A stretch of 21,591 nt of DNA, taken from a virus. Where the stretch lies: positions 1-21,591 of the IMG/VR virus record IMGVR_UViG_3300030517_000001, one strand, 5' to 3'. The translations under genes and the position numbers were made by a program. Shown one piece after another: positions 3,551 to 21,591 of the stretch. Each line of letters starts with the position of its first letter. The stretch's first letter is position 1. Under the pieces are notes generated by a model, which had not been told where the DNA came from, made no database searches, and saw nothing but the letters and a program-made list of their open reading frames with translations.

Positions 3551-3801
3551 GCGTCACCCAGGAACAACTCGACCGCTGGCGGGCCTTCGCCGCGCAGACA
3601 CTCGTGGATGTGCGGGAGGTCCGCCGGCTGATCGCATGCGGGCAGACGATGGCCGCCGATCAGCTTCTCCACGGCATGCACGACAGCGCGATCATCGCCG
3701 GCCTTGGCATGGACGACGCCGGGGCGAACCGGCCCGCCGGGATGCCGGCCAGACCGACCGGCGCGGATCGGCGGGCAGCGGAGCATGAAGCCAATGAGTG
3801 A
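3547..3801 (+). CDS. Hypothetical protein, 84 aa
   Basis: ATGA overlap with the regulator stop. High GC3 in frame. Confidence 0.5.
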   Translation: MSVTQEQLDRWRAFAAQTLVDVREVRRLIACGQTMAADQLLHGMHDSAIIAGLGMDDAGANRPAGMPARPTGADRRAAEHEANE

Positions 3802-4755: not shown

Positions 4756-4850
4756 CCGAAAGGGTAAAAGCCGATGGAGGTGGAGAACGAGCTGGACGTG
4801 TACGGACCGCCAGGGCGGGACCGGGACTGAGCGATCAGCCCAGCCGTGTG

Positions 4851-4920
4851 TGCCTTCTCTTGTATGCCTTCTCTTGTATGCCTTCTCTTGTATGCCTTCT
4901 CTTGTATGCCTTCTTCTGAG
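4851..4920. repeat. Tandem 14-bp repeat TGCCTTCTCTTGTA, 4 perfect copies plus 1 degenerate
   Basis: Perfect copies at 4851, 4865, 4879 and 4893. The degenerate copy is at 4907-4920. Confidence 0.95.
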
Positions 4921-5053
4921 CCTGATGCCTGAGCCTTCGGCTTTTTCGGGTTTTTCGTGGTGGCAGCGGTCTCAGCCAGCGGGCGACTTCTTTCACTTTT
5001 TTATGCCGCTGCGGGGGGACTTTTTTAGCTTTTTTAGCCTATTTCGCCAGGCT

Positions 5054-5086
5054 GAGGCTGCCGACGAGATCCCCGTCGGCAGCCTC
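5054..5086. repeat. Perfect 12-bp stem hairpin (gaggctgccgac / gtcggcagcctc), 9-nt loop, no U-tract
   Basis: Read directly. Lies in the 590-bp intergenic region. Confidence 0.8.
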
Positions 5087-5112
5087 TGACAAGGCCACTA
5101 TTTCAACGCCGT

Positions 5113-5128
5113 TATTTGACGTCAAATA
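5113..5128. repeat. Perfect 16-bp palindrome TATTTGACGTCAAATA, copy 1
   Basis: Exact palindrome, ~145 bp upstream of the promoter at 5272. Confidence 0.95.
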
Positions 5129-5271
5129 CTGCTGCGGGGACGATCCTGGCCCGCCCCCTCGCGCGTGCCCGCGCGTGTGCCCGCGCAGGAGAAACCAGCG
5201 CAGCCTTTCATCCCTGGTTATACTTCCTGAAATCCGCATTATCGGCAGTATAAATGTTACCGCCCGCGCTG

Positions 5272-5300
5272 TTGACAACGGTATTGATAACGGCTATACT
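5272..5300 (+). promoter_or_regulatory. sigma70 promoter, TTGACA-17 nt-TATACT, upstream of the integrase operon
   Basis: -35 at 5272-5277 and -10 at 5295-5300. Confidence 0.65.
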
Positions 5301-5348
5301 GAGATAGAGAAGGCAGACATGAGGGCCACTCAAGGGAGATCAAAATAG

Positions 5349-5672
5349 ATGAGGATAATTATCAGGGGAAAAGCCGGGGTTCATCTTCTCAGCTTTCAGG
5401 AGCCTGCCGAATGGACACAACTGCAAGACTTCGCCAAGCAGGCTGGATGGAAACCGGCACTCGCTAATTATAGCCCGGAAGATGGCTCTCCCGTCATCGT
5501 CGGGGCAGAGGATGCTCAAAGTTTTCTTAAAGCCCTGGCGCGACATATCACCCCTCAGCCGGACCCAAATCAGCCTTCGCATGTGCTGATCGGTAAGGTC
5601 ATCGAGGGGCTGGAAGGCACAATCGCGAATGGATTCACTCTCGAAACCATACCCTTCCTCCCAGGCGCCTAG
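5349..5672 (+). CDS. Hypothetical protein, 107 aa (lower GC than its surroundings)
   Basis: Downstream of the strong promoter, with AGGGAG upstream. Preferred over antisense ORF 5340..5747 because of operon context. Confidence 0.45.
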   Translation: MRIIIRGKAGVHLLSFQEPAEWTQLQDFAKQAGWKPALANYSPEDGSPVIVGAEDAQSFLKALARHITPQPDPNQPSHVLIGKVIEGLEGTIANGFTLETIPFLPGA

Positions 5673-6624
5673 CGAAATAGGCGAAGCCACAAACCCGGCG
5701 TCGGAGGCTCTTCGCCTTTTGCTGGCCGACACCCGGAGCGCCGACACCCGCCGCGCCTACGAGGCCGACCTGCGCGACTTCTTCGCCTTCCACACCGGCG
5801 AAACGGTTACGCCGGCGAGCCTCGCCAGCTTCTGCGCGCTCCCGTCCGGCCCGCTGGCCTTGGCCCTAAATGGCTACAAGGGGCATTTGCAGGGGCGCGG
5901 CCTGGCCGAGTCCACCGTCAACCGCCGCCTGTCCGCCGTCCGCTCGCTGCTCCGCATGGCCCGGCGCCTGGGGGCCATGGGCGCCGACCCCGCCGGCCTG
6001 GTAACAGGGGAGAAGACGTGGAGCTACCGGGACACGCGCGGCCCCGCGCTGTCTGAGGCCCGCCGGCTGCTGGCCGCGCCGGATACGTCCACCCTGCGCG
6101 GCCTGCGGGACCGGGCGCTGCTAATGCTGCTGTGCGAGAACGCCCTGCGGCGCGGCGAGATCCACAAGTGCGACGTGGGCGACTTCCGGCCCGCCGAGAG
6201 CCGGCTGCTGATCCTGGGCAAAGGCCGGGGCAGCCAGAAGGAGCCGGTGACGCTTTCCCCCGCGACCGTGGCGGCGATCAGCGTGTACCTGGCGGCCCGC
6301 CATAGCCCTTCGGCGGACGCCCCCTTGTTCTGCAACCTGGCCCGGTTCTCGGACGGCGGGGCGCGGCTGACCGGGCGCGGCCTGCTGCACGTCGTCAATG
6401 AGTACGGCCGGCGGGTGCTGGGGAAGGACCTGCACCCCCACGCGCTCCGGCACATGGCGATCACCGCTTGCCTGGACGCGACCGGCGGCGACGTGCGGAC
6501 CGCCCAGCGGCTCTCCCGACACGCCGACGTGCGGACCTTGCAGCGCTACGACGACAACCGGGAGGACCTGCAAGGTAAGGCCACGCAGCTCCTCTCGGCA
6601 CTGTTGCATGGGGATGGGGCTTGA
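5629..6624 (+). CDS. Tyrosine recombinase / integrase, XerC/D-like, 331 aa
   Basis: N-terminal SAM-like domain (RAYEADLRDFFAF, LSAVRSLL). Catalytic-domain motifs LRRGEI, GKG, HPHALRH and the RTLQRY tyrosine. Confidence 0.9.
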   Translation: MDSLSKPYPSSQAPSEIGEATNPASEALRLLLADTRSADTRRAYEADLRDFFAFHTGETVTPASLASFCALPSGPLALALNGYKGHLQGRGLAESTVNRRLSAVRSLLRMARRLGAMGADPAGLVTGEKTWSYRDTRGPALSEARRLLAAPDTSTLRGLRDRALLMLLCENALRRGEIHKCDVGDFRPAESRLLILGKGRGSQKEPVTLSPATVAAISVYLAARHSPSADAPLFCNLARFSDGGARLTGRGLLHVVNEYGRRVLGKDLHPHALRHMAITACLDATGGDVRTAQRLSRHADVRTLQRYDDNREDLQGKATQLLSALLHGDGA

Positions 6625-6830
6625 GCAAGCGTCAGGCTGGCGTCTGGGCGGGCAAGCTGGTCGCCCTGGGCTTCGACACGCGCCGCTGCGTGGAGGCGGA
6701 CGACACGGACGAGGGGGAGAGCGCCTGGTCGGTGTGGTGTTCCGACACTGAGCAAGGCGGCTCATACTTCTATGAGCCGGCGGACTGCCGGGGCTTCCTG
6801 CGCTGGGCAGAGAGTCAGGGGCTGGCATGA
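6621..6830 (+). CDS. Hypothetical protein, 69 aa (TTG start overlapping the integrase stop)
   Basis: ORF track entry and translational-coupling geometry only. Confidence 0.4.
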   Translation: MSKRQAGVWAGKLVALGFDTRRCVEADDTDEGESAWSVWCSDTEQGGSYFYEPADCRGFLRWAESQGLA

Positions 6831-6858
6831 GGGAGAAGGGAACCGAGAGGTACGAGGC

Positions 6859-7119
6859 ATGAACGAGACGATCCAGAAGGAGCGCCGCCCTGGCCGCCCG
6901 AGGAAGCGCAGCCCGCGCGGGCCGCAGTACGACCCGATCACCGTGCAGCTCCCGCCGGACCTGGTGACAGCCCTCGACGCCGCCACAGAGGCCGAGGGGC
7001 TGGACAGCCGCAGCGAGGTCATCCGCCAAGCCTGCCGCTCTTACCTGAAGCGCGCGGAGAAGCGACTTGGCGAGAGGCTGGGGATGGTGCCCAGCGGGAC
7101 ATCAGAAAGGACTATCTAA
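6859..7119 (+). CDS. Ribbon-helix-helix (CopG/MetJ-type) DNA-binding protein, 86 aa
   Basis: Internal ATG of ORF 6772..7119. ITVQLPPDLVTALDAATEAEGLDSRSEVIRQACRSYL is the RHH beta-strand plus two helices pattern, preceded by a basic N-terminal arm. Confidence 0.65.
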   Translation: MNETIQKERRPGRPRKRSPRGPQYDPITVQLPPDLVTALDAATEAEGLDSRSEVIRQACRSYLKRAEKRLGERLGMVPSGTSERTI

Positions 7120-7736
7120 TGGCAACTCTTGTACTCAAGATCAACCTGCCAGATGAAGTCAGGGACCAACTCAACGCGCTTCCCGCGCCTCTGAGGGCCA
7201 AGATCAACGACGCGGCCAGGGAACGGGGGCTTGATGGCCTCGGGTTCTTCATCCAAATGAAGACGATGCTCCTTCTCCCCAAAAGCAGCATTACTCTTGA
7301 CCCCATTGAGCAGGACATCCTGAATGAAGTGTGGTTAACCCTGAAGGCTTTTGATGAAGGCGTACTGGGGCAAAATGGAAAGCGGTTAGACGAACTCGCC
7401 GGATTGCAGGCTGACCAGGAAGAAAACAAAGTGGTCACAGTAGATGAAGAGAGCATCGCGCGCCTCGCCAATTCACGCATCAAGGTTTCCCAGATTGCGA
7501 TGGAGCATACGAGACTTGGCCTGACACCCGAACAGATCGCCGAGGCCCATCCGCATCTGTCGCAGCACCAAGTCTATGCGGCCCTTGCCTTCTACTACGG
7601 CCACAAAGACGCCATGGATGCCCAGATCGCCGCGTCCCTGACATTCGCTGACCAGGAGCGCCTAGAGGCCGGACCGTCGCCGCTCGCTGCCCGGTTGCGG
7701 TCTGAGGGGCGGCTGCCAGCAGGACGCGCCGCGTGA
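7119..7736 (+). CDS. DUF433-domain protein (putative antitoxin) with ~120-aa N-terminal extension, 205 aa
   Basis: C-terminal RIKVSQIAMEHTRLGLTPEQIAEAHPHLSQHQVYAALAFYYGH matches DUF433. TAATG overlap with the RHH gene. The N-terminal half is visibly lower in GC. Confidence 0.65.
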   Translation: MATLVLKINLPDEVRDQLNALPAPLRAKINDAARERGLDGLGFFIQMKTMLLLPKSSITLDPIEQDILNEVWLTLKAFDEGVLGQNGKRLDELAGLQADQEENKVVTVDEESIARLANSRIKVSQIAMEHTRLGLTPEQIAEAHPHLSQHQVYAALAFYYGHKDAMDAQIAASLTFADQERLEAGPSPLAARLRSEGRLPAGRAA

Positions 7737-7746
7737 AGGGTTACGA

Positions 7747-8094
7747 ATGAGCCTCGCTCTCTACACGGACGAAAACGTCCTCGGGCAGATCGTCAGCGGG
7801 CTGCGCCGGCGCGGGGTGGACGTACTGACCGTAGTCGAAGACGAACGAACCGGCATCCCCGACCCGGAGGTCCTGGACCGGGCGACGGCGCTTTCCCGGC
7901 TCCTGTTCAGCCAGGACGACGATCTGCTCCGGGAGGCGAAGAAGCGGCAGGAGAACGGGGAGGCATTCGTCGGCGTGGTCTATGGGCACATCCTGCGGGT
8001 GAGTGTCGGCCAGGCTATCGAAGACCTGGAAGTGATCGCAGGCGCCGGCGATTTGGCCGACTTCGCCAATCGGGTGGAATATCTGCCTTTATGA
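7747..8094 (+). CDS. DUF5615-family PIN-like nuclease domain protein (putative toxin), 115 aa
   Basis: LYTDENVLGQIVSGLRRRGVDVLTV...IPDPEVLDRA...LLFSQDDD matches the DUF5615 pattern. This is the canonical partner of DUF433. Confidence 0.65.
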   Translation: MSLALYTDENVLGQIVSGLRRRGVDVLTVVEDERTGIPDPEVLDRATALSRLLFSQDDDLLREAKKRQENGEAFVGVVYGHILRVSVGQAIEDLEVIAGAGDLADFANRVEYLPL

Positions 8095-8930
8095 CAGAGC
8101 CTATGACAGAAGGCAGGGGAAGGGCCATAGGGACAGCAGCCGCAGGAACAGATGAGGAACACGCGCCTGAGCACCTATTGACCATCCCCGAGGCCGCCGC
8201 CAAAATCGGTGTCTCCGAGCGGACTCTGTACCGCCTGCTGAAGAGTGACAACTTCGCCGCCAGAACGGTGACACAGCACCGGCAAACGGTGACAGGGCGA
8301 CGGCTGACAACGTTGCTCCCGCCGGACATGGTGGAAGAGATCGCCCGGATGCAGCCGCCTCCCTCGGTTCAGTCTCTATCTCAGGAGAAGGCAGAAGGAG
8401 CGAAAGGGAGCGGGACGGGTGAGAACGTCGCCGACGCAGGCGAGGACACTGACAACGATGCCGCCAGCGGTGACAGGAACACCGGCAAGGACGCTGACAA
8501 CGCCAGCGGAACGGTGACAGACGGTGACGCTGACACCGTTCTCCCGGAGGATACGGTGTCAGCGGTGACACTGCCGGCCATCGTCTATCAGGCCCGGATC
8601 ATGGATCTGGAGGCAATGAACGCCGAGCTGCGGGCGGACAAGGAGCGGCTGTACCGGCTGCTGGAGATGGCGCAGGCGAACCTCGCGCGGGAACAGGCCC
8701 TGCGGTCTTTGCCAGCCCCAGATGTGGAAGCCTCAGCGACAAAGGCATCGGATGTAGGACAGAACTCGGCGCCGCAGATGCCACCAGTACCTCCAGATGA
8801 CACGGAGACGGGCGCACTGGTTCAGGACGGAGCGGAAGTCAAACGCACTACGGCGGCACCGGCAGAAAGTAAGCTGGCAGAAAGTAAGCCAGTAAGTTTC
8901 TGGGCACGGCTGATGGGTCGGAAGGAATAG
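8091..8930 (+). CDS. HTH (MerR/excisionase-type) DNA-binding protein with acidic repeat region and C-terminal coiled coil, 279 aa
   Basis: HLLTIPEAAAKIGVSERTLYRLLKS, then D/T/N-rich repeats, then ARIMDLEAMNAELRADKERLYRLLEMAQANLAREQ. Confidence 0.6.
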   Translation: MTEPMTEGRGRAIGTAAAGTDEEHAPEHLLTIPEAAAKIGVSERTLYRLLKSDNFAARTVTQHRQTVTGRRLTTLLPPDMVEEIARMQPPPSVQSLSQEKAEGAKGSGTGENVADAGEDTDNDAASGDRNTGKDADNASGTVTDGDADTVLPEDTVSAVTLPAIVYQARIMDLEAMNAELRADKERLYRLLEMAQANLAREQALRSLPAPDVEASATKASDVGQNSAPQMPPVPPDDTETGALVQDGAEVKRTTAAPAESKLAESKPVSFWARLMGRKE

Positions 8931-8934
8931 ACGT

Positions 8935-9606
8935 ATGGCTTTGTTTGGGCCAAGAGATGCGAACGTGCCATTGCTTACTCGCGTTGCACAGGTTGAGACG
9001 AATGAGCTAGAAGCGTTCATCTGGCAAGTAGATCAGCAGGAAATGAAGGCCCCACGCGATACCCAGACTGTTCGGGCGGAAAATCTAAGACAGTTGAAAC
9101 TGATGAGGCGACCCACGGTAGAAAGTATAGAAGGTCTCGGAAAGCCACTAGGTGACTTGTATTTGGAAGAAATCAAGGAATTAAACAAACTGCGATGCAT
9201 GACGTTGCACCTTCTGAACAACATCGCGAAAGCGCCGCCTGACGAAATCATCTTGTCGTCCAATACCCTCTTCGGCACCAGTGAAAAGGATGCGAGACTT
9301 CTCCATGATTGGAACTTGGAGTTCCTCAAGATGAAGCCGATAGTGCTTTATCTAAATCAGGATCGGTTAAGCGAAAAAAAACCCGCAAAGCCACGGCGGG
9401 ATTTAGTTGTCGGCTATGGCGGAGAGGGAATGCTAACAAATCACTGGATCAGGCGCGGGGCACTGGAGCTTCTAACGAAGGACTACGATCAAAAGGTGGC
9501 TTTTTGCCCCGTCTGCTCATTCCCATACTTGGTGCAGCGGACGAATCAACTTGTCTGTAGCGTCCGATGTCGGACCAGACAGGCAAAACGGAAGCAGCTC
9601 AGGTAA
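8935..9606 (+). CDS. Hypothetical protein with C-terminal zinc ribbon (CPVC...CSVRC), 223 aa, in a low-GC island
   Basis: GGAAGGAA RBS. Hand counts of 60-nt lines give 40% and 50% GC, against a GC-rich flank (a line near 10500 looks close to 70%). Confidence 0.6.
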   Translation: MALFGPRDANVPLLTRVAQVETNELEAFIWQVDQQEMKAPRDTQTVRAENLRQLKLMRRPTVESIEGLGKPLGDLYLEEIKELNKLRCMTLHLLNNIAKAPPDEIILSSNTLFGTSEKDARLLHDWNLEFLKMKPIVLYLNQDRLSEKKPAKPRRDLVVGYGGEGMLTNHWIRRGALELLTKDYDQKVAFCPVCSFPYLVQRTNQLVCSVRCRTRQAKRKQLR

Positions 9607-9620
9607 AATCAACTTATTGG

Positions 9621-9649
9621 TTGACGTAAAGCGATGAAATGGGTATAGT
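9621..9649 (+). promoter_or_regulatory. sigma70 promoter, TTGACG-17 nt-TATAGT
   Basis: -35 at 9621-9626 and -10 at 9644-9649, immediately after the stop at 9606. Confidence 0.6.
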
Positions 9650-9655
9650 ACCTTC

Positions 9656-9950
9656 ATCAAAACAGAAGACGCCTCCGGCCGGGGCTGTTTGCAGCAGCCC
9701 GATGTGGCCGAAAAGCGCCTCTGAGGAGAACCAGGGGTGGTTCAGGGTCTTCTGGGCAGAAGACTCCTATTTTACCACTCCCCCAACGTTTTTTCAATCA
9801 TCATCGGCTTACGCTCCCCATAACCAAGTATGGAGCGAGGTCAGGCTTCTTGTCTGTGCTGAAAATGCGCCGCCCGTCGCCACAGCCCTCCAGACAAGAA
9901 TAAAGCGCCCGAACACACTTGGTCCCTGTGTTCGGGCGCTTCGTCTTTTG
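9656..9950 (+). ncRNA. Candidate ~300-nt structured RNA or regulatory leader bounded by a promoter and an intrinsic terminator (alternative: 83-aa ORF 9702..9953)
   Basis: Bounded by the near-consensus promoter and a 15-bp-stem terminator. Internal hairpins at 9677-9709 and 9812-9837. CAGAAGAC occurs twice (9663, 9757), both complementary to GTCTTCTG (9747). No RBS precedes the internal ATG. Confidence 0.3.
9903..9950 (+). terminator. Rho-independent terminator
   Basis: aagcgcccgaacaca / tgtgttcgggcgctt, a 15-bp stem with a 9-nt loop, followed by cgTCTTTTG. Confidence 0.75.
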
Positions 9951-10029
9951 TGAGCATCGAATTCAAAAAGGAGCCAGGCCCCCACCCACGCCGGCAAGCA
10001 ATGGTGGAGACCTGTATGGAGAAGCCGAG

Positions 10030-10437
10030 ATGGATTATAGCACAGGAAGCCCAAAAACACAATCCCCCTATTCCTACCACCGCTACCCGGTCGAAGAGCT
10101 GCGTCGCCTTCCGGTCCGCGACAACCCCCGCTGCGAGACGCTGAGCTACGAACTCACGGCGGCCCCCGGCATGAAGAACTCCCACACTGGAAGGCCGCGA
10201 ACACATGGGCATGGGGCCGTGCGGCTTTTCGGCGGCTTCATCGCCGCCGTCTGCGTTGCACAGGATGCCGGCGAGTGGTTCCTGGAAGCACAGATCGCCC
10301 CATTTGATACGGAGCGGAATGGACGGGCGACGATGGAGTTCTCGCCGCAGATCCTCGCTGACATCTACCGGGTCGTGCAGCAGCACCAGATCGCAGGCCA
10401 GGCCCGCTCCTACGGGCGCGGGGAGGGCCGTAACTGA
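10030..10437 (+). CDS. Hypothetical protein, 135 aa, translationally coupled to the primase
   Basis: Internal ATG of ORF 9919..10437 with GGAGAAG 5 nt upstream. High GC3 in frame. Its TGA stop shares one base with the primase ATG (...ACTGATGCC). Confidence 0.5.
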   Translation: MDYSTGSPKTQSPYSYHRYPVEELRRLPVRDNPRCETLSYELTAAPGMKNSHTGRPRTHGHGAVRLFGGFIAAVCVAQDAGEWFLEAQIAPFDTERNGRATMEFSPQILADIYRVVQQHQIAGQARSYGRGEGRN

Positions 10438-13208
10438 TGCCCAGGTCTTCACACGGGCCTGACAAAGACGCCGTGCTGGCCGCCCTCACAGGCCGCTTCG
10501 CCGAGTTCTACGGTCAGTACGCCGCCCTGAAGTCCGCCGGCGGCGAGCTGCGCGGCCCCTGCCCCGTACACAACGGCCAGCGGGATAGCTTTGCCGTCAA
10601 CCCGGAAAGTGGGCTATGGCACTGCTTCAGCGAATGCGGCGACGTCGGCGGGGATGTATTCGAATTCCTGAAGCGCAAAGAAGGGCTGGACTTCCCGGAG
10701 GCCCTGGCCGCAGTCGCGGCGTGGGCCGGCGTTGCCGAGAGCGCCAGGCCTTCTCCCGGGGCGGCAGGCCGAACTGGGGACCGGCGGAGCGCCGGTCCGC
10801 CGTCGAGGCTGGACATCGCCCAGGCTTATGACTACACCGACGAGGCCGGGAAGCTGCTGTTTCAGGTCGTGCGGCTCAAGACGCCGCCGGGATCGCCGAA
10901 GGAGTTCCGGCAGCGCCATGCGGCAACGGGCGGCACCTGGGTCTGGTCGCTCAAAAGCGTCCGCCGCGTTCTGTACCATCTGCCGGAAGTGCTGGCGGCC
11001 GTCCGCGACAAAAAGACGGTCTGGATCGCGGAGGGCGAAAAGGACGCGGACGCTCTCCGTGCCCTAGGAATGGCCGCCACCTGTAACCCAATGGGGGCCA
11101 GCAAGAACAAGTGGCTGGACGAATACAGTCAGTCCCTGGCCAGCGCGAACGTCGTGATCCTCCCCGATAACGATGACGAGGGCCGGGGCCACGCCCAGCG
11201 CGTCGCCGCTTCTCTTCATGGGACGGCCTCGCGCGTCCGCATCGTCGCTCTGCCGGGCCTGCCGGAGAAGGGCGACGTGTCCGACTGGCTGGCGGCGGGC
11301 GGCGACACCCCGCAGCTCGTTCAGCTCGCAAAGCCCGTGCCCGACTGGACGCCGGGGACTGTCCCCTCCCCGGCGGGGCGTACAGACAAAGGGCTGCCGG
11401 AGTATGCGCCTTACCAGATCGCCCAGATCCTCGGGATAGAGACACAGGCCCCCGACTCCGACGCGGCGCTCTCTTTCCGCGCCGCCCAGGCCTTCCGCGT
11501 GAACCTGTGTTATTGCCAGGGACTTGGCTGGCTCCACTGGGGCGGCGCTCACTGGGAGGCCGATGATCGGGAGGGGAGCCGGACGGCTGCCCTCTTTGTC
11601 ACCCTCTCCAGGAAGGTCCGCGAAGAAGCCGCGTTCCTGTTCCGGCTCGTGTCGGAAGCCATTCAGCAGGGGCGCACGGAGGATGCGGCGGCCCTGGAGC
11701 GGGCGGCCAGGGCACACCTGCGGCACGTCAAGGTGGTCGAGTCCGAGCCGTTCGCGCAGCGGGCGATGATCCTCGCGAGGTCGCCGCTGGCCGCCGACGT
11801 CAAACTGTTCGAGCCGCGCGCCTGGCTGATCGGCTTTGCAAACGGCGTGTGGCACAAAGGCCAGTGGCGCTCCCATCAGCCTGAAGACTACCTGCTGAAC
11901 CTCTGCCCGGTCCGTATTGAGTCCCCGGAAGCCGAGGCGCCGCCCGCCGGGGGAGGGGAGTGGGCTGCTGTCCTGGAGCGGATCACAGGCGGCGAAATCG
12001 ACTACGCGCGCACCTTGCAGGAAGTCGCCGGCTATGCGCTCTCCGGTGCCTCTCACCTGCGCATCCTGCCCTGGGCGTATGGCGGCAAGGGGACGGGCAA
12101 GAGCACCCTTGCCGAGCTACTGACGGCCGTTCTGGGCGAGGGGGCGGCCTCGATTGATACCAAGCTCCTCAGCAACGACGCGCCGCGCGAGCGGCTGGGC
12201 GCGTCGCTCTGGGGCAAGCGCCTGGTCGTGTGTGCCGAGGCCGGCCACCAGCGCATTGACGCCGATCTGCTGAAGACGCTCTCCGGCGGCGACTCCTATC
12301 CGGTCCGCTTTAACTACAAGGAAGCCTTCACCGGGCGCCCCACCCATGTCCTGCTGATGACGGCCAACGACCCGCCGGCCATGAACGCCTACGACGACGC
12401 CCTCCGGGACCGGGTGCTCGCGCTGCCTTGCAATCACCGCCTGGAGGGAGACGACCCCGCGCATCCCGACCGGCTCATCTTCAGCGAAGGCGCGCGCATC
12501 GAGGAGGTCCGCCGCAATCCCGAAAGCGCCCTGGTAAGGGAGTTCGCCGCATGGGCGCTCTCCGGCCTGGCGCGGCTGTATGCTTCTCAGTCTCTCTACA
12601 AGGCCATGCGTGTCCAGATTGCGACCGCGCAGTTCTGGAAAGACACCGACACGCTGACGCCCTTCTGGGAGACGGTTGATGAGGCCGAACTTCGGAAGGG
12701 GATGACGCGGCCTGATCTTCGCCGGCTGTATGAGGCGTGGTGCCTGGCGGAAGGAGTGCGGAAGCCGATTGGACCGCAGCTTTGGACACAGGCTTGTCGA
12801 AGTGCCGGGCTGGAAGAGACTTGGATCGACAAGAAACGAGGGTGGGAGCTGAAGGGAACGCGGCAAAGTTACTACACTTCCTACACTTCAAGCCCTATTT
12901 TAGAACAAAGTCGCCTGAGTCAAGAAATGCCTCACAAGGGTTTGTCTGAAAACAGCAACGGAAGTGTAGGAAGTGTAGTAAAACCCGGCGCTCCTGATGA
13001 GGTAATTGTTGCCTCCTGCGCGCACGATCTGCTCCTTTTCGTGACTCAGGCCGGCCCGGTCAAGTACGGCCAGATCGTCGCTGAGATGAAGTCGCGCGGC
13101 CATACCGAGGAGGAAACCAAGCGCGTGATCGTCCGCCTTCAGCAGCAGGAGCGGCGCATTGAGAACGATCTGAACGCTGGCGGCTACGTCCTGGCACGGG
13201 CCGAGTGA
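10437..13208 (+). CDS. Bifunctional DNA primase-helicase: CHC2 zinc finger + Toprim + P4/D5-family SF3 NTPase, 923 aa
   Basis: CPVHNGQRDSFAVNPESGLWHCFSEC (CHC2). WIAEGEKDADAL ... ILPDNDDEGRGHA (Toprim). GGKGTGKST Walker A and LVVCAE Walker B. Confidence 0.9.
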   Translation: MPRSSHGPDKDAVLAALTGRFAEFYGQYAALKSAGGELRGPCPVHNGQRDSFAVNPESGLWHCFSECGDVGGDVFEFLKRKEGLDFPEALAAVAAWAGVAESARPSPGAAGRTGDRRSAGPPSRLDIAQAYDYTDEAGKLLFQVVRLKTPPGSPKEFRQRHAATGGTWVWSLKSVRRVLYHLPEVLAAVRDKKTVWIAEGEKDADALRALGMAATCNPMGASKNKWLDEYSQSLASANVVILPDNDDEGRGHAQRVAASLHGTASRVRIVALPGLPEKGDVSDWLAAGGDTPQLVQLAKPVPDWTPGTVPSPAGRTDKGLPEYAPYQIAQILGIETQAPDSDAALSFRAAQAFRVNLCYCQGLGWLHWGGAHWEADDREGSRTAALFVTLSRKVREEAAFLFRLVSEAIQQGRTEDAAALERAARAHLRHVKVVESEPFAQRAMILARSPLAADVKLFEPRAWLIGFANGVWHKGQWRSHQPEDYLLNLCPVRIESPEAEAPPAGGGEWAAVLERITGGEIDYARTLQEVAGYALSGASHLRILPWAYGGKGTGKSTLAELLTAVLGEGAASIDTKLLSNDAPRERLGASLWGKRLVVCAEAGHQRIDADLLKTLSGGDSYPVRFNYKEAFTGRPTHVLLMTANDPPAMNAYDDALRDRVLALPCNHRLEGDDPAHPDRLIFSEGARIEEVRRNPESALVREFAAWALSGLARLYASQSLYKAMRVQIATAQFWKDTDTLTPFWETVDEAELRKGMTRPDLRRLYEAWCLAEGVRKPIGPQLWTQACRSAGLEETWIDKKRGWELKGTRQSYYTSYTSSPILEQSRLSQEMPHKGLSENSNGSVGSVVKPGAPDEVIVASCAHDLLLFVTQAGPVKYGQIVAEMKSRGHTEEETKRVIVRLQQQERRIENDLNAGGYVLARAE

Positions 13209-13750
13209 GCGCCCAAGTGAACTACCCGCGCGGAAGCGGCAGGACCGCCCGTCCGGTGGCCCCACCCCGGTTGCCACAAGAGCCGACCGGCCCGCCATCG
13301 GGCACTAGTGCCCCGGAAGACGGCGGCCGGTCGCAGGATCAGGCCCGCGCCCGCCGCCGCAACGTGCGAATCGAGGACGCGGAGCAGGCTGCCTATGTCG
13401 CCGAGGTGGATGCCGCGATCGCGCGGGATCTCCCCGGTGCCGACTGCATCTTCAGCATCCCGAACGCGAACGCCGCCGGCCCGATTGTCGGGCAGACGCT
13501 CAAGGAGACGGGCCGGCGGGCGGGCGTCCCGGACCTGCTGATCGCCGTGCCACGCGAGGTCGCCGGCATCCGTTACGCTGGCTGCTTCTTGGAGATGAAG
13601 CGACCCGCCGGCGCGATCTCGGACGTGTCGGCGGAGCAGCGCGGATGGCTGGACCGGCTGGCGGCGCGCGGCTACATGGCCGTCGTCGTCTTCGGGTGGC
13701 GCGAGGCGTGGGCAGTCACGCGGCGCTACCTGGAGTGGGACGAAGACTGA
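13205..13750 (+). CDS. VRR-NUC domain nuclease (start uncertain: GTG 13205, 13217 or 13364)
   Basis: GVPDLLIAV...GCFLEMKRPAG..S..Q..WLDRLAARGY.AVVV fits the PD-(D/E)xK VRR-NUC core. The N-terminal ~50 aa are low complexity. Confidence 0.7.
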   Translation: MSAQVNYPRGSGRTARPVAPPRLPQEPTGPPSGTSAPEDGGRSQDQARARRRNVRIEDAEQAAYVAEVDAAIARDLPGADCIFSIPNANAAGPIVGQTLKETGRRAGVPDLLIAVPREVAGIRYAGCFLEMKRPAGAISDVSAEQRGWLDRLAARGYMAVVVFGWREAWAVTRRYLEWDED

Positions 13751-13761
13751 AAACAAGCAAG

Positions 13762-13777
13762 TATTTGACGTCAAATA
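13762..13777. repeat. Perfect 16-bp palindrome TATTTGACGTCAAATA, copy 2
   Basis: Lies in the 49-nt gap between the VRR-NUC stop and the tape-measure start. Confidence 0.95.
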
Positions 13778-13799
13778 ATGCGTCACAAAGGAAAACATC

Positions 13800-16700
13800 A
13801 TGCCCGGCTCAGAAGTAAGGATCCGTGTACTCTTTGATTCCGCCGTCGCCAAGGCGGCCGTCGCCGACTTCGCCCGCCAATCCACGACGGCAAACAAAGC
13901 CATCGCCGCCGAGGCACGGGTCGCCTCGACGGCCACACTGGGCCTGGCCCACGCCGTGCAGACGGTGGAGCGCGCGGCCGTCTCCGCCTCCCGTGCCCAG
14001 CTCCTCCATGCCCAGGCGTCGGCCAACGTCGCCAAAGCCTCCCGGATCACGGCGGAAAGCCTGGGGGCCGAGGCTGCGGCTGCCGCAAAAGCAACTGCGG
14101 CTTTTGAGCGTAAGACAGCCGTGCAGGCCCGCGCCGCCGACCGCGCCCTAGTCTCCGCCGACAATCGCATTAACCGTGACATGAGCTGGCTGGCACGGGA
14201 CGAGAAAGATGTCGGGAGTCGGCGGCGACAGATAGCGGGTCAAGCGGCGGGTGCCGCGACGACTGGCGGGGCCGCCGTGCTTGTTGGGCTGGGGGCCACG
14301 TTCGGCCCGATGTCCAACTTCGACCAGGACCTGCGGAACGTCAACTCGCTGGCAAAGGTCTCCGAGGCCGAGTTCAAAAAGCTGCATGATTCCGTTCTGG
14401 ACATCAGCAAGGACCCTCTCGTCCGGCAGATGCCCGCCGACCTCGCCAAAGGTCTGTACGACATCGTTTCGTCGGGCTATTCGGGCAAGCAGGCCCTCGA
14501 CCTACTGCGGGTCTCGGCGGTAGGCGCGGGCGCGGGCATGACCGACACGCTCACAGCGACGAAGGTGATGACTTCCGTACTTCAATCCGGCATCGGCGGC
14601 GTCACTTCGGCCTCTCAGGCAATGGACGTTCTTTTCCAGGAAGTCAATTTCGGGAAGAACACTTTCGAGGAGCTTGCCAGCCAGATCGGGCCGGTACTCC
14701 CTCTGGCCGCGAAGATGGGCGTGACCCTCCCCGAAGTCAGCGCGGCGCTTGCCACGATGACCCTGCAAGGCATCAGCGCGGGCGAGGCTTCCACGGAACT
14801 CAATCAACTCCTCATTCAGCTCAACACGAATAGTCCCCAGGCCGCCAAAGAGATGGACAAACTCGGCATCGTTCATGGCATGGCGGCGGTCCGGGCGGAA
14901 GGTCTGACCGGTGCGCTCAAGAATGTGATCGAGAAGACTCGGGGCCACGATGACGCCCTCCGGCACGTTTTTCCGCGCCTAGAGAGTTTCATCGGATACC
15001 TTGCCCTGTCCAAGAATAACGGGCAGGACTACACGGCCATGCTCGATCATATGGCACACGCCACTGACGGGCTGGGGGCAACCCAGGCCGCCGCCCAGGA
15101 GCAGGCGAAAGGCGCGGCGTTCCAGGCGGACAAGGTGAAGCAAGAGTACGAGCGGCTTGCCATAAGCGTCGGTGAAAAGCTGCTCCCCACTTTTCGAGAG
15201 CTTGGCCGCGAGGCCACTGCGGTTGCCGAGGCGTTTAATAAGCTGACTCCTGAGCAGCAGCAAGCCATCGTTCATGCCCTGGCATTCACGGCGGCCCTCG
15301 CACTCGGTGTTGGATTGCTGACGAAAACGGCTTTCGGCATCCGTGATCTGATGGAGGCGTTAAGTCTAGCCAAGATCTGGTTCGGGGCGCTTGGCGCGGC
15401 GGAAGGGGAGGCGGGCGCGGCGGGCCTGCTCGCCTTCGGGCCGGGCGCGGCCGTCGTTGTCGGGATCGCGGCCCTCGGCGTCGAGCTGATCGCTTTGAAG
15501 AATGATTGGGACGACGTGAAGCGGTCGGAGGACCAGGCCGCGAACTCCGCGATGGCCTACGCCGACAAGCTCAAAGCGCTCAAAGCCGGCACCAATCGGG
15601 ACGCGCTGATCGCCACCAAGAACGACCTCGGACGCGAGAGCGGCGACCTCAAAAGCGCGATGCTCGTCGCGGGCCAGATCAAGCCGCTGCCGGGCCAGAA
15701 CGCCCAGGACATGAAGATCGTCCGCGATGCCAGCCTGCGGAGTCAGCTCGGCGACAGTGGCTACGACACGGCCAACAACAGCTACCGGACGATGGCCGGG
15801 GCGCAGGCCCGTCTCAACGCGCTCCTGCCGGACCTGGCGAAAGTGACGAACGCCCTCCACGCGCAGACGCCCTCGGCCAACGCCGCGAACCGGATGGCGG
15901 ACACCCATGCAGACCAGCTCGCGCCGTATCAGGTCCCTCTCCTCAAAGCCGTCGGACAGTTCCACGATGCTTCGGTGCAGTGCGGCGAGTTCATCCGCAA
16001 GGGCGCGTCGGCGTTCGGCATGGTCGGCAACATCCAGAGCGCGGCCAATGCCGCCTTGAAGGGCAAGAACGTAGTCAAGAGCGACGGCGTGGACAGCCAC
16101 GGCGCACCGCGTTATCCGAATGGCACCGTGATCTACTTCGGGCATCATGGGGCGCAACACTTCGTTTCCACCTATGTCAACGATCGGGGCGAGCAGAAGG
16201 TCGTCGAGAACACCGAGGCGGGCCAGGGCAAGGGCCGCTGGCGCGTCCGGGCCGACCGCGATCTGTCCCGCATTGCGGCGGAGTTTCACGGCCACCAGGT
16301 CGCGTTTCACCTGCCCGGCGTGACGGGGCCGACCGCAGCGCAAGGCGGGCTACCCCCCACCAAATACAACGGCGGCACGTTCGGCGACGCCGGGCCGGAT
16401 AAGTCGGCGGCGGCCGCCCTGGTGGAGAAGGCGGGACTGGCGGCGGACGACGCCAAACGCGCCTACGAGCAGGCGACCAAAGCCTTCGAGGACACCAAAA
16501 GCGTTCATTATCTCGCCGCCGCCGAGTCCCTGCGCCACACACAGGCGACCCGCGAGATCGAGGAAGCCAGGGCGAACAGGGCGAAGGCCGACGCTGTGAA
16601 AGACCCCGAAACGGCGCCCAACGGGGTCGCCTTTGAGCGCAAGCGCCGTGACATCCTTGCTTCCGCCGCGAAGGACATCAAGGCGCTGGAGGAACAGGCG

Positions 16701-18956
16701 GGCGGGACGGCGGAAGATCACCGCAAGGCCGCCGCCGACCTCGCCGTCAACGTCCTCAACGGGCGCCTTGAATCGGCCAATCAAGCGGTCTCCCGGCTGG
16801 AAGCCCTCGCCGCCGTCTCGACCGACCCGAAGAACGCCGACGCGCTCCTGGCCGCCTACAAGACCCAGGCCCAGGCACAGATGGAACTCCTACGGGCGAC
16901 CCTCAAACACACGCTGGCCGACATCCCCAACACGCCGGGGAGGCAGACCCAGCGCCAGGCATTGGTCTCAGGCGAACAGACGCAGGAGCTAAGGGTCATG
17001 GGCGATCTGGCGACCAAGACGGCAGAGGTAGACACGCGGCGCATCGAAGCCAGTCAACGGCTTTTGACACTCCAAAGAGAGCAGGCGGCGGCTTCTCAGG
17101 CGGAACAAGACGCGCTCCTCGCGGCGGCTCAAATCGAGGCTGAACGCCAGCCTTTGCGGGAAGAGATTCATCAGGCGAAATTGAAGGAGCTGAATGCGAC
17201 CCGACGCATGGCGCTCCTCGACAGCGACGCCAAATACAGGCCCCTCCTGGACCGGGCGACCCCGGACACGCGGCCCGGCCTCGAAACTCAGAGCAACGCC
17301 GCCGCCAGGCGGATCAACGAGAATTACGGCACTGCCGTCGGCGCGGAGAACATCGCGTTCGGCACGCAGGAGCGGGAAGCGGCCAACGCCGCCATCTCGA
17401 CCCGCGCCGACCGACTGCGGACCGAGGCGGGCCTGACCGACGACCTGACCGCGAAGATGGCGAAGCTGGCCCAGGCGTATGACCTGATGATCGGCGTCGA
17501 ACCGGACCCGGCGGCGGCGGGGCTAATGCGCCAGCAGAAACAGGACGAGCAGGACAAGCTCGGCTTGCGCCGGGACGCCGACGCCGCCCAGCGTTCCCTT
17601 GCCGGCGGGATGGTTGCCAATGACCCAGCCGCGATCACCGCCGCGCTGGACGCCCTGAAGGCGCTGACGACCGACGCCCGCGCCAACCGCGAGGAACAGG
17701 CGTCGGCACGGGGCGAGTACGGGACGGCGATCCGGGACCTGACCGAGCAGCTCCGCCTGTCGCCGCGCGAGGCGGTCTCCCGGATCAACGACGAGCGCCC
17801 GAACATGACGGCGGGCGAGCTGGCCTCGGCGACGGCGGCGGCGAAGTCCATCCTGGACGGGATGCTGGATCGCAGCTTCACGAGCATTGACACCCTGCAC
17901 GACCCCCGCGACCGCAAGCGCGCGCTGGACGGCCTGAAGAAGTCCGTGGACGCCGATCCGGTCTACCGGGCGGCGGGCGTCACCGGCGACGCCGACAAGA
18001 AGATCACCGAGCGGATCGCCTCGACCTTGAAACGGTCGGGCATCGTGGACGAGTTCATGGGCGAGCTGTCGGCGGGCGCGGGCCGGGCGTCCTCGGGCGT
18101 TGTCCACGCCCTGCTCAATCCGAAGGACCGCAAAAACATCGGCAAGGCGTTCTGGGCGGACATCGCCAGCGCCGCCGAGGGCGCATTGGGGAACGTCGTG
18201 CAGAAGGAGGTCACGCACGGCCTGGAGGGCCTGCTGGGGGCCGGGACGGACGCGCTGGGGAACATCGTGGGCGGACACAAAAAGCGGACGCCGGGCAGCC
18301 TGGCCGACCCCAGCCAGGCGAAGTCTGATCCTAAGAGTGCCGGGGGCGCATCCGCGACAGGCGGGGCGCTGGGCAGCATCACCGGCATCCTGGGGCCACT
18401 GCTGGGAGACAAGGGCAGGACGGGCGACGCGCGGGTCGTGGACACCATGCACGTCGCCAACCTGGTCGTCGCCGGGACCACGGGCAAGCCGGGCGTCAAG
18501 CCGGGCGGCGTCGCCGGCGCGGACAGCGGCGTCGCCGGGGACATCGGGACGGGCCTCGGCATCGCCTCCCTCCTGGCCGGTCCACTGTTCGGCGCGGGCG
18601 CGGGCGCGGCGGTCAGCGGCATCTCCTCGATCTTCGGCAGCATCGGCAGCCTGTTCCACTTCGCCGAAGGCGGCATCGTGCCGGGGCCGGCGGGCGCGGG
18701 CGATGTGATCCACGCGCTGCTGTCTCCCGGTGAGGCCGTCATCCCCGCCGCGCGCGTCCGTGCGTTCCGGGACGCCGCACCGACCGCCCGCGCGTTCCGG
18801 CTGCCGGAGGGCAGCGACCAGGGCACACAGGCGCAGGCGCAGACCGTCAACTACGAAGCTCACTACCACCAGCCCGTCTTCCACAACGCCGAAGACATTG
18901 ACCGTGAGAACCGCCGCAACGCGCAGCGGCTCAGGACCGCCTTCACTGTCGGCTGA
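13800..18956 (+). CDS. Tail tape-measure protein (TP901/PhageMin_Tail-type core) with internal CHAP/NlpC-P60-like domain, 1718 aa
   Basis: Core is DLRNVNSLAKVSEAEF...GLYDIVSSGYSG...AMDVLFQEVNFGKNTFEELASQIGPVLPLAA...ATMTLQGISAGEASTELNQLL. Hydrophobic Gly/Ala segments and long coiled coils follow. C-terminal FAEGGIVPGP...LSPGEAVIPA motif. Confidence 0.85.
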   Translation: MPGSEVRIRVLFDSAVAKAAVADFARQSTTANKAIAAEARVASTATLGLAHAVQTVERAAVSASRAQLLHAQASANVAKASRITAESLGAEAAAAAKATAAFERKTAVQARAADRALVSADNRINRDMSWLARDEKDVGSRRRQIAGQAAGAATTGGAAVLVGLGATFGPMSNFDQDLRNVNSLAKVSEAEFKKLHDSVLDISKDPLVRQMPADLAKGLYDIVSSGYSGKQALDLLRVSAVGAGAGMTDTLTATKVMTSVLQSGIGGVTSASQAMDVLFQEVNFGKNTFEELASQIGPVLPLAAKMGVTLPEVSAALATMTLQGISAGEASTELNQLLIQLNTNSPQAAKEMDKLGIVHGMAAVRAEGLTGALKNVIEKTRGHDDALRHVFPRLESFIGYLALSKNNGQDYTAMLDHMAHATDGLGATQAAAQEQAKGAAFQADKVKQEYERLAISVGEKLLPTFRELGREATAVAEAFNKLTPEQQQAIVHALAFTAALALGVGLLTKTAFGIRDLMEALSLAKIWFGALGAAEGEAGAAGLLAFGPGAAVVVGIAALGVELIALKNDWDDVKRSEDQAANSAMAYADKLKALKAGTNRDALIATKNDLGRESGDLKSAMLVAGQIKPLPGQNAQDMKIVRDASLRSQLGDSGYDTANNSYRTMAGAQARLNALLPDLAKVTNALHAQTPSANAANRMADTHADQLAPYQVPLLKAVGQFHDASVQCGEFIRKGASAFGMVGNIQSAANAALKGKNVVKSDGVDSHGAPRYPNGTVIYFGHHGAQHFVSTYVNDRGEQKVVENTEAGQGKGRWRVRADRDLSRIAAEFHGHQVAFHLPGVTGPTAAQGGLPPTKYNGGTFGDAGPDKSAAAALVEKAGLAADDAKRAYEQATKAFEDTKSVHYLAAAESLRHTQATREIEEARANRAKADAVKDPETAPNGVAFERKRRDILASAAKDIKALEEQAGGTAEDHRKAAADLAVNVLNGRLESANQAVSRLEALAAVSTDPKNADALLAAYKTQAQAQMELLRATLKHTLADIPNTPGRQTQRQALVSGEQTQELRVMGDLATKTAEVDTRRIEASQRLLTLQREQAAASQAEQDALLAAAQIEAERQPLREEIHQAKLKELNATRRMALLDSDAKYRPLLDRATPDTRPGLETQSNAAARRINENYGTAVGAENIAFGTQEREAANAAISTRADRLRTEAGLTDDLTAKMAKLAQAYDLMIGVEPDPAAAGLMRQQKQDEQDKLGLRRDADAAQRSLAGGMVANDPAAITAALDALKALTTDARANREEQASARGEYGTAIRDLTEQLRLSPREAVSRINDERPNMTAGELASATAAAKSILDGMLDRSFTSIDTLHDPRDRKRALDGLKKSVDADPVYRAAGVTGDADKKITERIASTLKRSGIVDEFMGELSAGAGRASSGVVHALLNPKDRKNIGKAFWADIASAAEGALGNVVQKEVTHGLEGLLGAGTDALGNIVGGHKKRTPGSLADPSQAKSDPKSAGGASATGGALGSITGILGPLLGDKGRTGDARVVDTMHVANLVVAGTTGKPGVKPGGVAGADSGVAGDIGTGLGIASLLAGPLFGAGAGAAVSGISSIFGSIGSLFHFAEGGIVPGPAGAGDVIHALLSPGEAVIPAARVRAFRDAAPTARAFRLPEGSDQGTQAQAQTVNYEAHYHQPVFHNAEDIDRENRRNAQRLRTAFTVG

Positions 18957-19030
18957 GATAAATTCGGCTGAGGCACTCTAGGCAGTACGCAACAGACACT
19001 TTTATGGGTTTTCTGTGCTGCCTACGGTGT

Positions 19031-19064
19031 CCGGGCGGCAGACCCCTTTCGGTCTGCCGCCCGG
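19031..19064. terminator. Perfect 14-bp GC-rich hairpin after the tape-measure gene (no U-tract)
   Basis: ccgggcggcagacc / ggtctgccgcccgg with loop cctttc, between convergent transcription units. Confidence 0.45.
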
Positions 19065-19075
19065 AGGAAGTCAGC

Positions 19076-19140
19076 CAATTTTCTAATTTTCTCATGTCGG
19101 TCGAGCAATTCGGTTGAGCAATTTCGTAATTTTGTCATGC
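19076..19140. repeat. Two copies of a ~22-bp AT-rich motif CAATTT(C/T)(G/C)TAATTTT(G/C)T(C/T)ATG
   Basis: Copies at 19076-19096 and 19119-19140. A third copy is at 20340-20361 and a partial one at 19603-19613. Confidence 0.85.
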
Positions 19141-19173
19141 AGGTGGACGTCGCCGAAGCGGGCGGGAGGAGCC

Positions 19174-19197
19174 GCATTATTTGACGTCAAATAATGC
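19174..19197. repeat. Perfect 24-bp palindrome GCATTATTTGACGTCAAATAATGC, copy 3 of the 16-bp core
   Basis: Overlaps the last codons and the stop of the DUF488 gene (..LFDVK*). Confidence 0.95.
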
Positions 19198-19575
19198 CGG
19201 AAGCGGCGCGATGGTTGTCCCCGAGCTGACATCGCCGACAGACAGCTCAGGAACCATCACCCCCAGATGCTGCTCGAACCAGGTCGCCACGAGCCGGCGA
19301 TGACAAAATTCGCCCGGCTTCTCCCAGCACAGCAGGATGGGTTCATGCGGCTCGGCCAGGGCGTGCAGCGCGTCCCACGTTGCCTGTGGGTCCAGCTTGC
19401 TCAGGACCTCCTCGGCGAAGAGGGCGCGGTACTCCTCCTCGCTGACACTGTTGAACCACTTGCCGGGCGCGAGCTTCGAGAAGATGCGGTAGCCGGCGGG
19501 ATGCCGGCGCGGGGCCAGGCGCGCGATCGAGATCCGGCCCTCCATCGGGGTTGTCGAGAACGAGGCGGTTTTCAT
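19177..19575 (-). CDS. DUF488-family protein, 132 aa
   Basis: ISIARLAPRR...LAPGKW...EEYRALFAEEVLSKLDP...ILLCWEKPGEFCHRRLVATWFEQHLGV.VPEL matches my recollection of the DUF488 pattern. Confidence 0.65.
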   Translation of the reverse strand: MKTASFSTTPMEGRISIARLAPRRHPAGYRIFSKLAPGKWFNSVSEEEYRALFAEEVLSKLDPQATWDALHALAEPHEPILLCWEKPGEFCHRRLVATWFEQHLGVMVPELSVGDVSSGTTIAPLPALFDVK

Positions 19576-20339: not shown

Positions 20340-20361
20340 CAATTTCGTAATTTTGTTATGC
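20340..20361. repeat. Third copy of the 22-bp AT-rich motif (CAATTTCGTAATTTTGTTATGC)
   Basis: 21/22 identical to 19119-19140. Lies in the intergenic gap between paralogs A and B. Confidence 0.85.
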
Positions 20362-20956: not shown

Positions 20957-21591
20957 CTCTTGCCCTCCTGCACAGGGGACCCAATAGCAGCCTCAGCTTC
21001 CCACCCCAGCCGCAGGCGTTTCATCAATCCCGTGTAGGACACAGTGCAGCGACGGTCAGCGGCCCAGTCTTGACAGCACTTGGTTTCCCCGAAGGCTGTC
21101 AGAAGGTGCGTTCTACGACTGTTCCTGCGCTGTGTCCCGTCCGTCGCCCACCGGCAGTTGTCCGCCTCGTAATTGCCGTCGTTGTTGATTCGGTCAATGG
21201 AGAGGTCGTCGGCGTAGCCATTGGCGAGCGCCCAGGCGCGGAATTCCTCATAGTCTAGCCATTCACGGCAGACGGTGATGCCGCGCCCGCCGTAGTTGTC
21301 GTAACTGCCTGCGTTCGGGTTGTTGCATCGGGCAAGCATTGAGCGCCATGTGTTCCAAAGGCGCTCGCCGCTTCGCCCGTGTGATCGTCGCAGATTGTGG
21401 ACGTTCTCTAAGGCGAGGCACCCGCAGGAGCGGGAGTCATGTCTGAGGAGGTCATCGGCGAACACGACGCGCTCGGTGGCGAGCGGACAGAGGCATCGGC
21501 AAGGGTAAGCGCTCCGTTGCCATTGCCCGCGTCTTCTCATCTCGCGGGGGCCGATCACAACCCAGCGTCCGAAGCAGTCGCCGTCTTTGAT
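20953..21591 (-). CDS. HNH endonuclease (phage HNH_3-like), 3' part. The full gene is 224 aa and spans the circular junction.
   Basis: WNTWRSMLARCNNPN..SYDNYGGRGITVCREWL..F..F..WA..NGY...LSIDRINNDGNYEADNCRWAT...Q..N is the typical phage HNH signature. Confidence 0.8.
   Translation of the reverse strand: MKDGDCFGRWVVIGPREMRRRGQWQRSAYPCRCLCPLATERVVFADDLLRHDSRSCGCLALENVHNLRRSHGRSGERLWNTWRSMLARCNNPNAGSYDNYGGRGITVCREWLDYEEFRAWALANGYADDLSIDRINNDGNYEADNCRWATDGTQRRNSRRTHLLTAFGETKCCQDWAADRRCTVSYTGLMKRLRLGWEAEAAIGSPVQEGKR
21465..21591. repeat. Terminal overlap, identical to 1-127
   Basis: Same 127-nt string as the window start. Confidence 0.95.

Follow-up and report, generated by a model that had tools for sequence, protein, structure and literature searches.

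Three exact palindromes in a phage-like circle

The subject of this study is a short DNA palindrome that recurs in a phage-like circle, IMG/VR record IMGVR_UViG_3300030517_000001. The whole stretch of DNA analyzed, hereafter called the window, comprises positions 1 to 21,591 of that record and is 21,591 nucleotides long. Since bases 1–127 are identical to bases 21465–21591, the contig is, in assembly terms, a circle of 21,464 bp. The 16-bp palindrome, TATTTGACGTCAAATA, occurs in three exact copies, at 5113–5128, 13762–13777, and 19178–19193, and no further match with up to three mismatches was found in the window. Copy 3 is the core of a perfect 24-bp palindrome, GCATTATTTGACGTCAAATAATGC, at 19174–19197, and copies 2 and 3 also have TCAAATAATGC in common. 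The three copies divide the circle into arcs of 8,649, 5,416, and 7,399 bp. In dinucleotide-preserving shuffles, the expected number of copies is 0.01, and none of the 100 shuffles reaches three. Because the G+C content of the window is about 63% on average, an A+T-rich 16-mer is even less likely to recur. The bare hexamer at the center of the palindrome, GACGTC, is not enriched in the window (7 observed versus 7.2 expected) and shows no significant depletion there (7 versus 11.1).

Profile searches with Pfam, PHROGs, and NCBIfam revealed that the circle encodes a XerC/D-like integrase, a ribbon-helix-helix (RHH) protein, a DUF433/DUF5615 pair, an HTH_17 protein, a primase–D5 helicase, a VRR-NUC nuclease, a 1718-residue tape-measure protein (TMP), a DUF488 protein, an HNH nuclease, a Gam-like protein, and a Cro-like helix-turn-helix (HTH) protein. 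No capsid gene, terminase gene, or tail gene other than that for TMP was found in the window by these searches.

Where do the palindromes lie relative to these genes? We annotated all three as parS-like sites, without assigning a strand. Copy 1 (5113–5128), an exact match, is located between an origin-like repeat region and the promoter of the integrase operon, about 150 nt to the left of a promoter-like TTGACA-N17-TATACT site ahead of that operon. Copy 2 (13762–13777) occupies the 49-nt gap from the VRR-NUC stop to the TMP start, and its end is 22 nt from the TMP ATG. The TMP gene (13800–18956, plus strand; PF10145 and TMP PHROGs), the sole virion gene, follows directly downstream. Copy 3, in its 24-bp form (19174–19197), begins 218 nt past the TMP stop and reaches across the TAA stop into the final codons of the DUF488 gene (19177–19575, minus strand; Pfam), which is convergent to the TMP gene and carries the palindrome at its 3′ end. 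A preliminary description of this DNA had reported the three exact palindromes with the extension of copy 3 and the stretch common to copies 2 and 3, the distances from the TMP start and stop with the DUF488 overlap, the position of copy 1 at the edge of a repeat-rich region upstream of the integrase operon, and modules of about 8.6, 5.4, and 7.4 kb. Our measurements agree with it on every one of these points (the repeats to the left of copy 1 lie at 4847–4916), and the shuffles bear out its judgment that three such 16-mers cannot be chance.

The same 16-mer beside plasmid parA-parB operons

The canonical chromosomal parS consensus, to which ParB proteins bind, is TGTTTCACGTGAAACA. In a direct comparison, the 16-mer agrees with this consensus at 12 of the 16 positions, and the four mismatches are arranged symmetrically, as the pairs 2/15 and 6/11. 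When metagenome contigs were scanned for exact matches to the 16-mer, at least 120 loci were found. Among the matches listed, most are single sites in A+T-rich contigs and appear chance-like, and the same holds for those listed from the degenerate viral scan. The metagenome matches listed also include two G+C-rich, multi-copy loci, L139 and L162. In L139, the order is RepA_C, HTH-ParA, and ParB, with two exact copies of the 16-mer directly after parB. L162, which belongs to the same plasmid as L184, has three exact copies upstream of a NUDIX-parA-parB operon, and its ParA and ParB are homologous to those of L139.

For a blind test, we gathered proteins homologous to the L139 ParB through a protein search and retrieved their contigs regardless of whether the motif was present in them. 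The exact 16-mer was present beside parAB in all five of the ParB lineages fetched. One copy lies 13 nt past parB in L273, and one lies 22 nt past parB in L285. L277/L278 carry two copies, one on the parB stop and the other 150 nt downstream, and L286 carries two overlapping copies on the parB stop. L274, of the same lineage as L162/L184, has three copies upstream of NUDIX-parA-parB. Six ParB lineages (L139, L162/L184/L274, L273, L277/L278, L285, and L286), with pairwise identities of 53–77%, are thereby represented, and in each of them one to three exact copies are located either close to the parB stop, at most about 150 nt away, or directly ahead of the operon. The flanks of the plasmid sites are unrelated to one another, and the HTH segment of ParB is invariant across the clade.

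The partner ParB proteins have the ParB_N plus HTH_ParB architecture, and the replicons of the clade carry RepA_C or RPA/Rep3, as in plasmid or chromid ParABS systems. The nearest named relatives are the ParB proteins of Azospirillum megaplasmids, with about 50% identity, and the 16-mer is absent from the Azospirillum plasmid ParB locus at this level of identity. From these loci, we conclude that the 16-mer is the predicted parS of this plasmid ParB clade. The assignment is a previously undescribed parS specificity, and the TATTTGACGTCAAATA variant was not found in the literature searched. Among several options, the preliminary description had listed centromere-like sites, and this option is now supported by the identical 16-mer beside parA-parB in six ParB lineages and by its resemblance to canonical parS.

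We also considered a generic host repeat and rejected it: the G+C-rich matches listed are parAB plasmids or mobile elements, and the rest are chance-like. The matches in L060 and L131 lie inside long open reading frames (ORFs) and were treated as probably due to chance or unrelated. The G+C-rich, single-copy contigs L191/L245, L212, and L195 have phage-type integrases or a prohead protease nearby. Since these contigs carry phage-type genes near the motif, further mobile elements may hold orphan copies.

Conservation of the site in related elements

The closest comparisons come from two relatives. The first, L013, is a second small element of 14.9 kb, probably circular, which carries an integrase, an RHH protein, an S49 peptidase, and TMP. 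The window and L013 have in common the integrase (59% identity), DUF488 (70%), three small ORFs, and TMP. The two look like members of a family of “TMP-only” satellite-like elements, and to our knowledge, no such family has been described. The second relative is a 49.9-kb phage contig from the Joint Genome Institute (L009/L010), of which our reading of L009 covers about half. Its genuine tail module contains a TMP 86% identical to that of the window, and the DNA similarity between the two contigs is limited to the TMP gene. The phage contig and the window element come from the same study of that institute.

In L013, the motif is located 18 nt before the TMP ATG, and a copy with one mismatch abuts the DUF488 stop, at the same end as in the window. 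A further copy follows the HTH_36 gene. Yet another lies in the integrase gene (3654–3754), where the motif forms an in-frame insertion of 11 amino acids (GDGKYLTSNNP...). The palindrome is open in a single reading frame per strand. Chromosomal parS sites often lie within coding sequence, and the tolerated in-frame copy in the L013 integrase is compatible with a site recognized by a protein at the DNA level. In phage L009, a variant with the center GACATC (TATTTGACATCAAATA) is located 9 nt before the TMP ATG, and the motif also precedes two other late genes. All four L009 copies have the center GACATC/GATGTC, and they occur in both orientations relative to transcription. GACGTC is depleted in L009 (2 observed versus 10.4 expected), and avoidance of AatII-type restriction sites may explain the variant center. 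In this phage contig, at 15172–16482, we also observed four tandem copies of TAGCTATTCTAATAA right after the TMP stop, followed by an IS605-type TnpB gene (OrfB_IS605/Cas12f-like) on the opposite strand.

When the regions upstream of TMP in the window, L013, and L009 are aligned, the motif is the sole fully conserved block. The flanks and even the N-terminal codons of TMP diverge among these relatives, while the 16-mer stays. The motif downstream of TMP was not found in L009 or L013, and the picture of a “bracketed cassette” is therefore particular to the window contig. Thus, of the earlier statement that the palindromes precisely bracket TMP, the upstream site is retained in the relatives, and the downstream site is not. 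Because the motif is kept upstream of TMP in the window, L013, and L009 and, in the first two, also at the DUF488 3′ end, we conclude that selection acts on the site and that its position is conserved. Position conservation in homologous elements, a check suggested in the preliminary description, accordingly holds at two positions. The motif is absent from the more distant TMP phages L126, L127, and L129 and from the primase-sharing phage L007. Therefore, it does not travel generally with TMP or with the primase.

The variants and positions described above also bear on a role at the RNA level, in which the motif would act as a hairpin serving as a processing site, a translational element, or an intergenic terminator. 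The intergenic positions just before ribosome-binding sites would suit such a role, and copy 3 folds with −12.9 kcal/mol and a z-score of −3.7. However, the minimum-energy fold of copy 2 does not contain the palindrome, and the fold of copy 1 is weak, with a z-score of −1.15. None of the copies is followed by a U-tract, and therefore none is terminator-like. Moreover, the variants (AATTTG..., ...GTCGTC..., and ...AAATT) break pairs without compensation, the asymmetric phage variant occurs in both orientations, and the plasmid copies lie outside the interiors of transcribed operons. An RNA hairpin as the conserved function is hardly credible in view of these observations.

Six near-identical sister assemblies from other samples provide a further comparison. 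Five of the six span copy 1, and none reaches copy 2 or 3. The junctions of copy 1 are kept in all five, and no rearranged junction was found there. In two, L280 and L281, a second exact copy of the motif is inserted beside copy 1 together with a lipoprotein-like gene cassette. The insertion in L280 (4826–5525) is about 700 bp long and contains a lipoprotein-like gene of 141 codons, preceded by the motif copy, with flanking direct repeats of about 60 bp.

Are the palindromes sites of recombination? The preliminary description had raised the option that they are core sites for the XerC/D-like integrase, composed of 9-bp arms around GACGTC, which would allow cassettes to be excised or inverted. 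Modules such as the TMP cassette could also be swapped in this way. The arms with the 6-bp center do resemble dif/lox-type sites. In addition, the DUF488 block is inverted in the window relative to L013, with motif copies at both junctions, the cassette of L280/L281 has its own motif copy beside copy 1, and TMP has clearly been exchanged between phage and element, the region of homology having the motif at its left border. The right edge, however, has no site in L009 or L013, and the direct repeats of about 60 bp explain the insertion in L280 better than the 16-mer does. Since the spacer, GACGTC, is palindromic, the site has no direction, and three sites of this kind would break up the circle. 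Furthermore, the locus tables of the plasmids that keep the site beside parAB list no called integrase gene, and the five near-identical assemblies cross copy 1 without rearrangement, copies 2 and 3 lying outside the fetched loci. Xer-type core sites are thus very unlikely. Occasional homologous exchange at a common 16–24-bp site, without a dedicated recombinase, would explain the mosaic boundaries.

The placement of the motif in these relatives is also relevant to a transcriptional function. The sites could be operators for a regulator encoded by the element or by a helper phage, such as a Cro-like HTH, RHH, HTH_17, or other protein. TMP, the integrase operon, and the accessory cassettes would then be switched together as one dispersed regulon, with the sites acting like stoperators or late-activator sites. 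Consistently with this idea, the sites are located 9–60 nt upstream of the ribosome-binding sites or starts of TMP (in three lineages), of two L009 late genes, and of the L280 lipoprotein cassette. RHH and HTH proteins are encoded in both the window and L013, and copy 1 contains a weak leftward promoter-like match, with TTGACG as the −35 element. On the other side, the identical 16-mer occurs in six plasmid ParB lineages that have no regulator in common with the window, and no homology is detectable between the RHH/HTH proteins of the window and those of L013 although the site is identical. No promoter-like sites are present at copies 2 and 3, and one L013 copy lies within the integrase coding sequence. 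We therefore consider unlikely both operators of this kind and the coordinated regulon that they would form; the narrower proposal of the preliminary description, operators for the HTH/RHH proteins of the element itself, does not accord with the plasmid loci, which keep the site without such homologues, or with the lack of promoter-like sites at copies 2 and 3. The palindrome as a promoter itself, with TTGACG on both strands resembling paired −35 elements, was rejected, as a weak partner −10 element is present at copy 1 only.

Probable orphan parS sites, served in trans

How would centromere sites function on this circle? In the window, no cognate ParB or ParA was detected on the same replicon as the sites: none of the ORFs matched ParB_N, HTH_ParB, or a ParA-type ATPase in Pfam, PHROGs, or NCBIfam. 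When the window, L013, L009, and L190 were searched with a hidden Markov model built from 119 sequences of the ParB clade, the best E-value was 1.6. Single-sequence AlphaFold models of the ORFs at 8935–9606 and 8178–8930 had mean confidence scores (pLDDT) of 34 and 57, respectively, and were unusable, so that these ORFs may still encode a cryptic centromere-binding fold. Since the window has no detectable ParA/ParB, we read the palindromes as orphan sites served in trans. That is, the three copies are probably orphan parS centromere sites using the ParB of another replicon.

The primase/D5-type helicase (10437–13208, plus strand; Pfam Zn_ribbon_DnaG, Toprim, D5_N, and DUF5906) is predicted to be the element's own replication function, giving it the capacity for an episomal form. 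With parS in exact triplicate, its own primase–D5 helicase, and no parAB, the element can therefore be grouped with SGI1-like carriers of orphan parS. We propose the following scheme. In a cell that also contains a replicon with the cognate ParB, this protein would load onto the circle at its three sites and spread along the DNA from them. ParA would then partition the episomal form of the circle. As a side effect, partition incompatibility with the donor replicon would be expected. ParB may also silence locally, for example at TMP directly downstream of copy 2, and a secondary effect like that of KorB could reach the genes just downstream of sites, namely TMP and the lipoprotein cassette of L280. 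That ParB binds the sites, that its replicon resides in the same host, and what physiological consequences follow are all inferred here from sequence. So is the origin of ParB, which may be encoded by a resident plasmid or chromid or in the unread part of a helper phage. Since a search of IMG/VR viral contigs for the ParB clade found nothing, the source is slightly more likely to be a plasmid or chromid of the host than a phage.

Several observations weigh against orphan centromere sites. First, no ParB donor was found for the element: the search of IMG/VR viral contigs gave no member of the clade, the ParB plasmid contigs and the element carry different sample identifiers, the tetranucleotide similarity between the element and the plasmids is uninformative, and the related 50-kb phage contig was read over about half of its length. 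Second, the plasmid sites are clustered beside parAB, whereas those in the window are dispersed, 5–9 kb apart. Third, the tight positions upstream of gene starts (TMP and the L280 lipoprotein cassette) would suit a transcriptional role. Fourth, all four L009 copies have the asymmetric center GACATC, which may affect ParB binding. Finally, these plasmids encode a type Ia ParA with an XRE-type HTH at its N terminus, and ParA, not ParB, could in principle be the binder; the position downstream of parB in most loci argues against such an operator (ParA-binding) reading.

A wider scenario, which we regard as speculative and rather improbable, is that phages and small, TMP-bearing, satellite-like circles of a single host lineage form a guild that has taken over the centromere of a plasmid or chromid resident there. 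The ParB of this replicon, loaded right before the tape-measure gene and other late or accessory genes, would partition these elements in trans and, like KorB, silence virion genes in the episomal state. Incompatibility caused by the orphan sites would displace the plasmid, and centromere mimicry on the phage side would thus be coupled to the control of late genes.

What would orphan parS sites mean? The present analysis assigns a candidate parS specificity to an uncultivated plasmid ParB clade. If the copies in the window are orphan parS sites, then such sites would offer an easy way to tell from sequence on which plasmids a mobile element relies and with which it competes, and they could link viral contigs to hosts with the cognate ParB.

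Other features of the circle

The repeat-rich stretch beside copy 1 (4847–5088, no strand assigned) consists of five 14-bp tandem repeats, TGTATGCCTTCTCT, at 4847–4916, followed by phased T-tracts and a G+C-rich hairpin at 5054–5088; the arrangement is at most suggestive of iterons or an origin. To the right of copy 1, the XerC/D-like tyrosine integrase gene (5629–6624, plus strand; Pfam) is the first gene of its operon. A second candidate for an origin lies in the 3′ part of the primase–helicase ORF, where an A+T-rich, imperfect inverted repeat of 54 nt with CTACACTTC direct repeats (12869–12981) may be an origin embedded in the replication gene.

Two further repeats were observed. At 663–734, between an ORF on the minus strand (163–570) and an excisionase-like HTH gene on the plus strand (743–970), a 30-bp inverted repeat (93% complementary) contains two promoter-like TTGACA-N17-TACAGT sites that face each other. 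A search for homologues of ORF 163–570 matched only itself, and the near-identical sister assemblies were reached from this match. The 22-nt repeat CAATTTCGTAATTTTGTCATGC is present in three copies: two within 19076–19140, between the terminator hairpin of TMP and palindrome copy 3, and one at 20340–20361, 1.2 kb off, among small genes on the minus strand. With megablast, the element as a whole had no match in PLSDB or INPHARED.

Comparison with known partition systems

In type I ParABS systems, the canonical parS is TGTTNCACGTGAAACA, and chromid- and plasmid-specific 16-bp variants exist, as in the multipartite genomes of Burkholderia. The palindrome of the window resembles such ParB–parS sites in being a perfect 16-bp palindrome with a central CG and outer T-rich/A-rich arms. 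It differs in that the sites in the window are dispersed and adjoin no parAB. The feature is real and conserved, and it is best filed as a new parS sequence variant with orphan copies on a phage-like element.

In RK2/IncP, the ParB-family protein KorB acts on a scattered short palindrome, OB, often beside gene starts, and functions in both partition and transcriptional silencing. Short palindromes are likewise scattered near gene starts in the window. In contrast, KorB is encoded in cis, OB (TTTAGCSGCTAAA) is unrelated to the 16-mer, and silencing is a possible role here. The conserved placement just upstream of TMP raises the idea that ParB loading also gates this virion gene.

The partition system of the phage-plasmid N15 is reported to affect late gene expression as well. 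N15 has four separate inverted-repeat centromere sites (IR1–4) for SopB (PMC7205306; see also Ravin and Lane 1999, and Ravin, Rech and Lane 2008, cited in PMC11652158). As in N15, single palindromic centromere sites would be scattered in a phage genome, including its late region, with no single array. However, N15 encodes its own sopAB, and the window encodes none.

The closest parallel is SGI1, which carries two functional mimics of the parS of its IncC helper and has no parAB of its own; it is thereby stabilized and drives the plasmid out (Muranyi et al. 2024, PMC10954446). Like SGI1, the present circle would be an integrative, replication-competent element that lacks parAB and carries the parS of another replicon, and both stabilization in trans and incompatibility would be expected. 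SGI1 is a mobilizable island with a conjugative plasmid as its helper, whereas the element described here is a phage-like circle with TMP, Gam, HNH, and primase, and its site is also present in related phages. Centromere mimicry, shown experimentally so far for SGI1/IncC, would thereby be extended to phage-like elements and phages.

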